A stretch of DNA of 4,565 nucleotides from Escherichia coli (GTDB lineage: Bacteria > Pseudomonadota > Gammaproteobacteria > Enterobacterales > Enterobacteriaceae): assembly GCF_003334335.1 (NCBI RefSeq), contig NZ_QOWQ01000078.1. One strand, written 5' to 3'. Position numbers and translations under genes: made by a program. The notes under the pieces are model-generated. The model was not told the origin of the DNA, did not search any database, and worked only from the letters and a program-made list of their open reading frames with translations. Below, in pieces: positions 1,794 through 4,178 of this stretch. How positions within the stretch are numbered: the first letter of the stretch is position 1; each line of letters begins with the position of its first letter.

Positions 1794-4178
1794 TTATTGC
1801 TTAGTAAACGGCGCGAAGATTTCGCTAAATGCGTACTTCGGTGCCTGTTCTTTAGTCAGGCCGTGGAATTCCGGAGACAGGTTAGTGCCGCCCGGCAGGT
1901 CGCGCGCGATTGACCAGATACCAACCATACCGAGATTACGCTTCTGCGCATCCTGCATGACCAGACGAGCATCAGAGAGATAGAACACCTCGCCCTGAAC
2001 GTCGTTCACGCCAACCATCGGCGTGGTACCCATCATAGCGTCAATTTCTGCATCGCTCTTATTGGGATGGAGGCCTTTCAATTGTGAATGCAGGTTGGCA
2101 ATCGCAGACGTTGCACACTTACCGTGAATGTTCTGGCCTTCGGTATTTGCAGACTGACAAATCGCGTTACCGTAGTCCATTGTCATCACGTTCACACCCG
2201 CCAGCTCAACACCTTTCGCTTTGGCATCGCTCAGGACATTCATCCCTTCCGGCGTCAGGCCAGTCGGCAGAATTGGCAAGGTGTACCAGATAGCAATATC
2301 TTTGCCTTCTGACTTCCATTTATCCTGCACTTTCTTCACAGCAAGGTTACGACGTTCAATAGATGCCTGATCCGCAACCCAGGTGCCTTCGATATCGAAG
2401 TCCAGGACTTTGAGGTTCAGGTTATCAACGATGTCATAATAATGCTGCATCAGATCGTCTACGTTCTTACAGGAAGCAGCCAGCGGAGCGTTGTTAGCAC
2501 CACCGATAGACAGCATCACATCGCCGCCAGCCTCACGCAGAGCTTTGATTTTGCTGTACTGAGCGTAATTCTGCATACCGTAAGCGGTACCCCATGTCGG
2601 CAGACAGGTGTTCGCATCTTTACTCACCACAAACGCCAGCGTGAAGTGGTTGACGTTATGATTCTTAGCCAGCGCAGCCAGATCCGGGATCGTATTCAGC
2701 GTAAAGTCGACATACGGTGCATAAACGTGTTTCGGCCACGCTTTCTTCGGCGTACCTACGCGCTCTTTGGTTCCGGTCCAGTCAACAAAAACACGCCACG
2801 GGTTGCTGTCAGAAGGAGAAACTTTCTGCACTTTACTCTGAGAAATGTAGTTCACACCGTTAAAGCGAATCAGCGTATCGCTGGCATAAAGCGTTTCTGG
2901 ATTAAACTGCGGCGCATTATTCAGCTCTTCGTTGCTATAGCTCTGAGCCTTACCTAACGGCTTCCACGGGCGGCTATTGCTACCGGTGGCGTTTTGGTTC
3001 GCCACCAGAGCAGGGTTGTCACTTTGCGTCCAGAACAGCGCTTCATAAGCCTGCCCATCAACAACAACGCGATCACCTTTCACGTACACAGTGGATGCGG
3101 ACCATGCTTTCGCCGGTTCGTATTTCTTCCACGGGTTATCGCCGCCCGGGACAAAGCCCCATGCGTCTTGATCGACAGAAGTTTTATAATGTGCATCGTT
3201 ATAATCTACGATGCTGTCCGCGCTGTACGCTTTGCTGGCCTGGAAACCATCCGCAACAATGACGCCGCCGTTATCAATTTCACAGGTAGTCGGGTTACCG
3301 TACTGACTCAATTCCGCAGCGGTAGCTGTACGCTCGAGACGCCATGGGTTATTGGAGTTTTCAGCGCTGGTACCCCGTGGGCAATCTTTAGACCCAACCC
3401 ACCAGGCGTTCTTGTAAACATTACCATTGAAAATAACATGGTAAATTTCGCTACCTTCCTGGCCGCTCCACGCTTGCAATGAGTAATCGTTAACGCTATC
3501 CGCTGGTGTTGATGGCTCGCTGTTATCCGGAGTTGGGGTCACCGGTGTTTCCGGAGTTGGATCAACCGGAGTCACAGCACCGCCATTATTATCCGGCTTA
3601 ACGGAACAGGAGCCAGGGTTACCATACTGGCTGATTTCTGTTGCCGTTGCCGCGCGAACATAACGCCATGGGTTACTGGCATCGTTTTCTTTCGCATCGC
3701 CTGGGCAATTTGCCGCGCCTACCCACCAGGCGTTCTTATAAATGCCGCCGTTATAGATAACGTACCATGTAGAAGAACCTTCCTGACCTTTCCAGGCTAC
3801 TACAGCATAGTTGTCGTTTGACTTATCAGCTGGGGCTGGCTGAACATCAGGAGCCGGTTTAACGTCCGGTGCCGGTTTCACATCCGGTGAAGGCTGTGGT
3901 GCTGAAGTACAGGACTGTGGATTACTGGTTTCTGAGATTTCCGTTGCCGTAGCGGCACGAACATAACGCCATGGGTTGCTGGCATCATTGCTTTTCGCAT
4001 CACCCGGACAGTTAGAAGAGGCTACCCACCAGGCATTTTCATAAATTTTGCCATCGAAAATAACCTGATATTTATTACCACCTTGTTGGTTATTCCATGC
4101 TTCCATTGCCAATGCTGGCAGAGCGGAACACACCAGCCCCATACCAATCATAGATTTAGTAAATATATTTAATTTCAT
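1794..4178 (-). CDS. chiA: Secreted endochitinase / lysozyme ChiA: Sec signal peptide, three N-terminal CBM5/12-like chitin-binding repeats with Pro/Thr-rich linkers, a classical chitin-binding type-3 domain, and a C-terminal GH18 (hevamine-like) catalytic domain
   Basis: 794-aa ORF. N-terminus MKLNIFTKSMIGMGLVCSALPALA↓ME is a typical signal peptide with an AxA site. Three ~65-aa modules share AW…Y.VI.NG.Y.NAWWV…CPG…NPWR…TATAAE(I/L)S…C. AWSASTVYVKGDRVVVDGQAYEALFWTQSDNP is a ChtBD3 motif. LDFDIEG (aa 592-598, DNA 2388-2402 for DFDIE) matches the GH18 catalytic D-x-D-x-E motif. The position between bfd and tufA matches E. coli chiA. Confidence 0.94.
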   Translation of the reverse strand: MKLNIFTKSMIGMGLVCSALPALAMEAWNNQQGGNKYQVIFDGKIYENAWWVASSNCPGDAKSNDASNPWRYVRAATATEISETSNPQSCTSAPQPSPDVKPAPDVKPAPDVQPAPADKSNDNYAVVAWKGQEGSSTWYVIYNGGIYKNAWWVGAANCPGDAKENDASNPWRYVRAATATEISQYGNPGSCSVKPDNNGGAVTPVDPTPETPVTPTPDNSEPSTPADSVNDYSLQAWSGQEGSEIYHVIFNGNVYKNAWWVGSKDCPRGTSAENSNNPWRLERTATAAELSQYGNPTTCEIDNGGVIVADGFQASKAYSADSIVDYNDAHYKTSVDQDAWGFVPGGDNPWKKYEPAKAWSASTVYVKGDRVVVDGQAYEALFWTQSDNPALVANQNATGSNSRPWKPLGKAQSYSNEELNNAPQFNPETLYASDTLIRFNGVNYISQSKVQKVSPSDSNPWRVFVDWTGTKERVGTPKKAWPKHVYAPYVDFTLNTIPDLAALAKNHNVNHFTLAFVVSKDANTCLPTWGTAYGMQNYAQYSKIKALREAGGDVMLSIGGANNAPLAASCKNVDDLMQHYYDIVDNLNLKVLDFDIEGTWVADQASIERRNLAVKKVQDKWKSEGKDIAIWYTLPILPTGLTPEGMNVLSDAKAKGVELAGVNVMTMDYGNAICQSANTEGQNIHGKCATSAIANLHSQLKGLHPNKSDAEIDAMMGTTPMVGVNDVQGEVFYLSDARLVMQDAQKRNLGMVGIWSIARDLPGGTNLSPEFHGLTKEQAPKYAFSEIFAPFTKQ
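3282..3488 (-). repeat. chiA: chiA intragenic repeat 3 (chitin-binding module 3, aa 231-299)
   Basis: Same module architecture (AWSGQEG…NAWWV…CP…NPWR…TATAAELS…C), more divergent than modules 1 and 2. Confidence 0.7.
3606..3809 (-). repeat. chiA: chiA intragenic repeat 2 (chitin-binding module 2, aa 124-191)
   Basis: Shares the identical peptide NCPGDAK.NDASNPWRYVRAATATEIS with module 1; roughly 75-80% DNA identity with module 1 by eye. Confidence 0.75.
3834..3887 (-). repeat. chiA: Imperfect 18-bp tandem repeat ×3 encoding the (PDVKPA)2-PDVQPA linker between ChiA modules 1 and 2
   Basis: + strand units TGCCGGTTTCACATCCGG (3870-3887), AGCCGGTTTAACGTCCGG (3852-3869) and GGCTGGCTGAACATCAGG (3834-3851); codon-by-codon translation gives the PDVKPA repeats. 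Confidence 0.8.
3909..4103 (-). repeat. chiA: chiA intragenic repeat 1 (chitin-binding module 1, aa 26-90)
   Basis: DNA and protein self-similarity to modules 2 and 3; e.g. CGAACATAACGCCATGGGTT is shared between modules 1 and 2. Confidence 0.75.
4107..4178 (-). other. chiA: ChiA Sec signal peptide coding segment (aa 1-24)
   Basis: Basic N-terminus (K2, K8), hydrophobic core IGMGLVCSALPALA, and an ALA cleavage motif. Confidence 0.7.

Follow-up and report, generated by a model that had tools for sequence, protein, structure and literature searches.

A rare, recurrent three-module allele of Escherichia coli chiA lacking one repeat period of its N-terminal array

ChiA of Escherichia coli is a secreted bifunctional endochitinase/lysozyme of glycoside hydrolase family 18 (GH18), exported in K-12 by the Gsp type II system (Francetic et al. 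2000, cited in PMC5797941). Work on Crohn's-disease-associated E. coli treats the protein as a factor in adhesion and mucus degradation. In the adherent-invasive E. coli (AIEC) strain LF82 the 'pathogenic' form of ChiA carries five substitutions, at LF82 positions 362, 370, 378, 388 and 548 (Low et al. 2013, cited in PMC11486038, PMC6393329), and LF82-type variation in the binding modules has been reported to change CHI3L1 and mucin binding (PMC11486038). In these accounts ChiA variation is scored as the five substitutions, and module number is not mentioned (PMC11486038, PMC6393329). The reference protein, K-12 MG1655 ChiA (YheB, UniProt P13656, WP_000773156.1), is the product of a 2694 bp gene, is 897 aa long and carries four N-terminal modules of 65 aa (aa 26–90, 129–193, 230–294 and 338–402). 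Only one relative of these modules has been solved, the N-terminal domain of Yersinia entomophaga Chi2 (PDB 6ogd, 9c4k chain C), a single copy of which docks the chitinase onto the toxin A subunit in the complex YenTc (PMC12705794); the ChiA modules, unlike that domain, are repeated in tandem on an enzyme that is secreted free. Here we describe the chiA gene in a stretch of 4,565 nucleotides from E. coli (contig NZ_QOWQ01000078.1, analysed whole and referred to here as the window), which encodes a ChiA of 794 aa with three such modules in place of four.

The window gene is K-12 chiA minus 309 bp, with no mismatch in its 2385 bp and none in the 387 bp upstream. Aligned with K-12 ChiA, the protein shows a single 103-aa gap and matches at every one of its 794 residues. 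An exact prefix/suffix breakpoint search on the gene DNA placed the gap within the module array, where the loss takes in 43 aa from K-12 module 1, the Ser/Asn/Thr-rich linker 1 (38 aa) and 22 aa from module 2, amounting to one module-equivalent plus one linker, i.e. exactly one repeat period. An earlier note on this DNA, which had been made from the letters alone, described an intact, in-frame open reading frame about 100 aa short of the K-12 protein, with three tandem modules of ~65 aa at 3282–4103, took the 103-aa difference for about one module plus linker, and proposed in-frame variation in repeat copy number, which a single clean gap of ~103 aa inside the repeat array would confirm. The alignment bears out each of these points: the reading frame is intact, the modules as anchored here span exactly those coordinates, and the loss is of one repeat period between direct repeats.

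At the junction lies a 16-bp exact repeat, AAAATGCCTGGTGGGT, which is found twice in K-12 chiA, at gene nt 140–155 and 449–464, 309 bp apart, and is kept as a single copy in the window; the breakpoint can be placed at any point inside it. Compared in register, K-12 modules 1 and 2 are 62% (aa) and 64% (nt) identical, and the 16-mer, their longest exact match, encodes part of the conserved NAWWV motif. As the breakpoint falls at this identity, the first module of the window is an in-register hybrid, the N-terminal half of module 1 fused to the C-terminal half of module 2, with both of its cysteines coming from the module 2 part. In an AlphaFold2 model built on an input alignment of 26 modules, the hybrid is confidently predicted to fold (mean pLDDT, the predicted local distance difference test, 93.5). 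The features of the gene, with module boundaries set by anchoring on NAWWV, are as follows.

1794–4178, minus strand: chiA coding sequence, intact open reading frame, 2385 bp, 794 aa.
4107–4178, minus strand: probable signal peptide, aa 1–24 (MKLNIFTKSMIGMGLVCSALPALA), same as in K-12, read from the sequence, with cleavage presumed.
3909–4103, minus strand: hybrid 65-aa module, aa 26–90, consisting of the N-terminal 22 aa of K-12 module 1 plus NAWWV, then the C-terminal part of K-12 module 2.
4024–4039, minus strand: deletion junction, the 16-bp exact repeat, gene nt 140–155.
3801–3908, minus strand: Pro-rich linker, aa 91–126, equal to K-12 linker 2.
3843–3889: PDVKPA tandem repeat within the Pro-rich linker, 18 bp in 2.6 copies.
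3606–3800, minus strand: second 65-aa module, aa 127–191, equal to K-12 module 3.
3477–3605, minus strand: linker, aa 192–234, holding a 24-bp imperfect tandem repeat (two copies) at 3521–3569.
3282–3476, minus strand: third 65-aa module, aa 235–299, equal to K-12 module 4, with K-12-type residues at the AIEC-associated positions.
3006–3245, minus strand: canonical CBM_5_12 matches (Pfam PF02839), aa 312–340 (E 0.092) and aa 358–391 (E 1.3e-7).
2073–2663, minus strand: GH18 domain (Pfam PF00704), aa 506–702, E 8.6e-10.
2388–2402: catalytic DxDxE motif, DFDIE, aa 593–597.

The window ChiA thus shares with K-12 ChiA its locus, signal peptide, modules 3 and 4, downstream CBM_5_12 domains and GH18 domain, and differs in lacking the C-terminal part of module 1, linker 1 and the N-terminal part of module 2. 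Position in the locus, identity to K-12 over the whole length and a GH18 domain with DxDxE all identify it as ChiA, whereas the reference trait of four N-terminal modules (897–900 aa) is replaced by three modules in 794 aa. It is a chiA allele, not a different family. The number of short repeats in the linkers also varies by allele: the ChiA protein P0001 is one PDVKPA short, and an extra TPE is present in the 900-aa B2-type alleles.

The repetition within the array is evident in the DNA, where a repeat search of the window returned three direct copies (3309–3474, 3633–3798 and 3936–4101) at spacings of 324 and 303 nt. The earlier note had given window modules 1 and 2 an identical stretch of 27 aa and a DNA identity of 75–80%; on comparison the longest identical run is 19 aa, with 26 of 27 positions identical, and the DNA identity is 69% over 195 nt or 73% over 166 nt. 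It had also called the modules carbohydrate-binding module (CBM) 'CBM5/12-like', a label that seems reasonable at the level of fold and fails at the level of sequence. None of the 26 modules matched Pfam CBM_5_12 (PF02839), for the hybrid module no family in Pfam scored E ≤ 10, and over the modules a scan of the whole protein gave a CBM_5_12 fragment only (aa 248–262, E 9.7). Among solved proteins, a profile built from the modules hits one, the Chi2 N-terminal domain (6ogd_C residues 26–89, E 7.7e-19), and in Foldseek the modelled hybrid superposes on Chi2 chain 9c4k_C with a template-modelling (TM) score of 0.82 and 45% identity. Against CBM5/12 domains (the Streptomyces griseus ChiC chitin-binding domain, Serratia marcescens ChiB and the CBM5 of CjLPMO10A) TM scores were 0.5–0.6 with weak E-values of 0.04–1, the S. 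griseus ChiC domain giving TM 0.59 at probability 0.99 and a weak E-value of 0.12. W3, Y21, W25 and W26 are invariant in the 26 modules, in the W...Y...WW aromatic pattern of CBM5/12. In the sense of fold and W/Y/WW aromatics only, 'CBM5/12-like' is therefore a reasonable name for what would be putative chitin-binding modules.

To place the allele among E. coli, we searched 5426 complete E. coli genomes, using for the junction a 50-mer probe at an E-value limit that excludes the half-matches found in full-length genes. chiA had a match in 3163 of these genomes and at least 80% of the gene was covered in 3148. At least 80% of the 309-bp segment is held by 3101 of the ~3148 chiA-bearing genomes, so that four modules are present in ~98.5%. 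The junction was matched in five genomes, those of strains 600055, EC0430, 20KM2222, MS 85-1 and A13, or ~0.16% of the chiA-bearing ones. These five are part of the shortfall between 3148 and 3101, not all of which consists of deletion alleles, and insertions of insertion sequence (IS) elements in chiA could account for part of it. The gene is variable in other ways too. No chiA match was obtained in 2263 of the 5426 genomes, strain 3PT retaining a 61-bp remnant only, several complete genomes have IS1 or IS3-family insertions inside chiA, and Shigella proteins of 701 aa are truncated within the GH18 domain.

The five genomes do not all carry the same allele. That of strain 600055 is one synonymous base off the window gene and encodes a protein, WP_085432453.1, with the very sequence of the window ChiA. 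EC0430, 20KM2222 and MS 85-1 share another 794-aa allele (WP_000773136.1) with the same junction and 12–13 sites different from the window gene; this allele equals the full-length allele of avian pathogenic E. coli (APEC) O78 minus the same 309 bp, with no other difference in the gene or in 387 bp upstream. The full-length K-12 and APEC O78 genes themselves differ at 12 sites. The three strains, isolated or reported in China, Switzerland and the USA respectively or in some other order, are 0–1 base apart over 7.4 kb, and the allele therefore persists in a widespread lineage. Finally, the same junction is present in a B2-like haplotype in A13 (797 aa) and in P0062, a 791-aa protein taken from a Logan assembly; diagnostic single-nucleotide polymorphisms (SNPs) lie on its right-hand side, 16 and 32 nt away. 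Since the WP_000773136.1 allele is the APEC O78 allele less the same segment, the deletion appears to have recurred; by haplotype background it arose at least twice, probably four times. Divergent homologues at 71–76% identity also have four modules, and homologues in other genera have one (Enterobacter and Citrobacter) or three (Superficieibacter-like); taken together, the copy number in related genera is 1, 3 or 4. Judged from these comparisons, four modules are the common and older state of E. coli ChiA and the three-module allele is derived.

Module number has also changed elsewhere in the same array. A second three-module class, with proteins of 796–799 aa and many database members, retains module 1 and has a hybrid of modules 2 and 3. 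In one representative (P0023, L011:3001–5400) a 303-bp deletion lies between modules 2 and 3, at a 29-bp identity, and in another (P0002, L015:154–2544) the junction between these modules is mosaic; a 79-mer over the P0023 junction matches one of the 5426 complete genomes, that of ETEC1746 (NZ_CP122727.1 451920–451996). These 799/796-aa alleles (P0023, P0002, ETEC1746) resemble the window in the in-frame loss of one repeat period from the same array, and differ from it in the segment lost, 303 bp between modules 2 and 3 against 309 bp between modules 1 and 2. Rarer putative architectures of two or three modules appear among cluster representatives, some of them from automated assemblies.

The window very likely holds a derived chiA allele that arose by deletion between short direct repeats, probably of the slippage type, and that encodes a presumably still active enzyme. 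Misalignment of two 16-bp direct repeats, both encoding NAWWV and lying in modules 1 and 2 respectively, would have removed precisely one repeat period of 309 bp (103 aa) from an ancestral four-module array and left one repeat copy; in the product the hybrid module precedes modules 3 and 4, after which come the CBM5/12 domains and the GH18 domain, the latter intact. The event was probably replication slippage or another short-homology deletion independent of RecA. What is found at the junction is what such a deletion leaves: paired repeats, a loss equal to their spacing, one copy kept and no other change. A classical RecA-dependent unequal crossing-over of misaligned modules on sister chromosomes would act on the same tandem, in-frame homologous repeats, and the 29-bp identity used by the 303-bp class comes closer to the length required for homologous recombination. 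In E. coli the minimal efficient processing segment for RecBCD recombination is ~23–27 bp, however, and the identity at the 309-bp junction is only 16 bp amid sequence that is 64% identical. The reciprocal product, a five-module gene with the module 2 left flank joined through the 16-mer to the module 1 right flank, did not turn up in any of the 5426 complete genomes, five of which have the deletion. With so short a homology and deletions only, a slippage-type event is favoured, and unequal crossing-over is possible yet unlikely. The earlier note had proposed that recombination between repeats could delete or add a module: repeat-mediated loss stands, as do the deletions, while the duplications did not appear, and the breakpoint lies within the 16-bp identity of modules 1 and 2, outside the long identical stretch that the note had flagged (K-12 modules 2 and 3), which instead serves the 303-bp class of 796–799-aa proteins.

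That the gene was always short, with a three-module ancestor and K-12 gaining a module by duplication, might be suggested by the lower module numbers in related genera, but it is hardly credible here: the first module of the window consists exactly of K-12 module 1 sequence spliced to that of module 2, the two K-12 modules are too dissimilar for a recent duplication, each three-module allele is otherwise identical to a particular four-module allele and the short alleles are nested in different haplotypes, and nearly all chiA-bearing complete genomes have four modules. The hybrid structure of the first module effectively refutes this ancestry. A collapse of the tandem repeats during short-read assembly would fit a window bounded by repeats, IS100 at 1–77 and the tuf 3' end at ~4470–4565, as is typical of short-read contigs; it is nevertheless very improbable and was rejected, the 16-bp identity being shorter than usual assembler k-mers, its flanks only 64% identical, and five complete chromosomes assembled by independent laboratories, among them that of 600055, having the same junction. 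Several points weigh against a slippage-type deletion that has recurred in an active enzyme. Slippage and RecA-dependent recombination yield the same product, and the lack of duplications could reflect selection or a small sample (five events). K-12 and APEC O78 have no SNP from the gene start to nt 648, and therefore a short conversion tract could carry one deletion between backgrounds tracelessly. The source allele itself is known from an apparent short-read contig bounded by the tuf 3' end and IS100.

On the reading of a short-repeat deletion, the 794-aa ChiA is short of one binding module and most likely keeps its enzymatic activity, because its signal peptide, two original modules, CBM_5_12 domains and GH18 domain with DFDIE are intact. 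By general knowledge of enzymes with several CBMs, its avidity for a polymeric ligand would be expected to be somewhat lower. At LF82 positions 362, 370, 378, 388 and 548 the protein has K, K, A, E and V, the K-12 'non-pathogenic' residues. It is like LF82 ChiA in varying within the binding modules of the same protein, and unlike it in that the variation is one of module number and not of substitutions.

The rest of the window follows the E. coli tuf–chiA–bfd–bfr–gspO order, with chiA between tufA and bfd–bfr and adjoining the gsp operon.

~4470–4565: 3' end of tuf.
1431–1625, minus strand: bfd, open reading frame within the window.
883–1359, minus strand: bfr, open reading frame within the window.
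177–854, plus strand: gspO, prepilin peptidase, 225 aa.
78–177, plus strand: last 100 nt of gspM, the remainder displaced by IS100.
1–77, minus strand: terminal 77 bp of IS100 (IS21 family), abutting the truncated gspM.

The window is bounded by repetitive sequence (IS100 and the tuf 3' end) and looks like an entire short-read contig broken at repeats. Positions 1–77 have no match to gspM and are the end of IS100, an element that is multicopy in E. coli chromosomes and plasmids; as the contig reads, gspM is interrupted by IS100 in the source genome. The type II secretion system specified by the gspC–O operon is the presumed exporter of ChiA (PMC5797941), and export may be lost in the source strain because the insertion falls in that operon. 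The gspM–IS100 junction was found in none of the 5426 complete genomes, and the source strain is therefore outside that set; in strain 600055, which has the same chiA allele, gspM is intact.

The 794-aa protein is already known, being in RefSeq under a generic name (WP_085432453.1). The Prokaryotic Genome Annotation Pipeline (PGAP) calls full-length genes 'chiA: bifunctional chitinase/lysozyme' but gives short alleles no gene name and the label 'carbohydrate-binding protein' (annotation tables of L002, L003, L004, L005 and L008), so that name-based surveys of gene presence would undercount chiA; no NCBIfam family matches either the 794-aa or the 897-aa protein. The 794-aa form is a rare, recurrent and ordinary repeat-mediated in-frame allele of a well-known gene. 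It is improbable, in our judgement, that the module array is a contingency-like region of variable copy number in which recurrent module loss at fixed short repeats is selected in gut or host-adapted lineages; were it so, module loss could retune binding to mucin or CHI3L1, or shed protein docking of the kind performed by the Chi2 N-terminal domain. For a protein studied for its part in adhesion and mucus degradation, the finding adds to the known substitutions a variation in the number of binding modules, brought about by deletions that recur at defined short repeats, and typing by polymerase chain reaction (PCR) or SNPs can therefore miss or mis-size alleles. The natural pair of three- and four-module proteins, otherwise identical, offers a ready-made test of what a single module contributes to binding.

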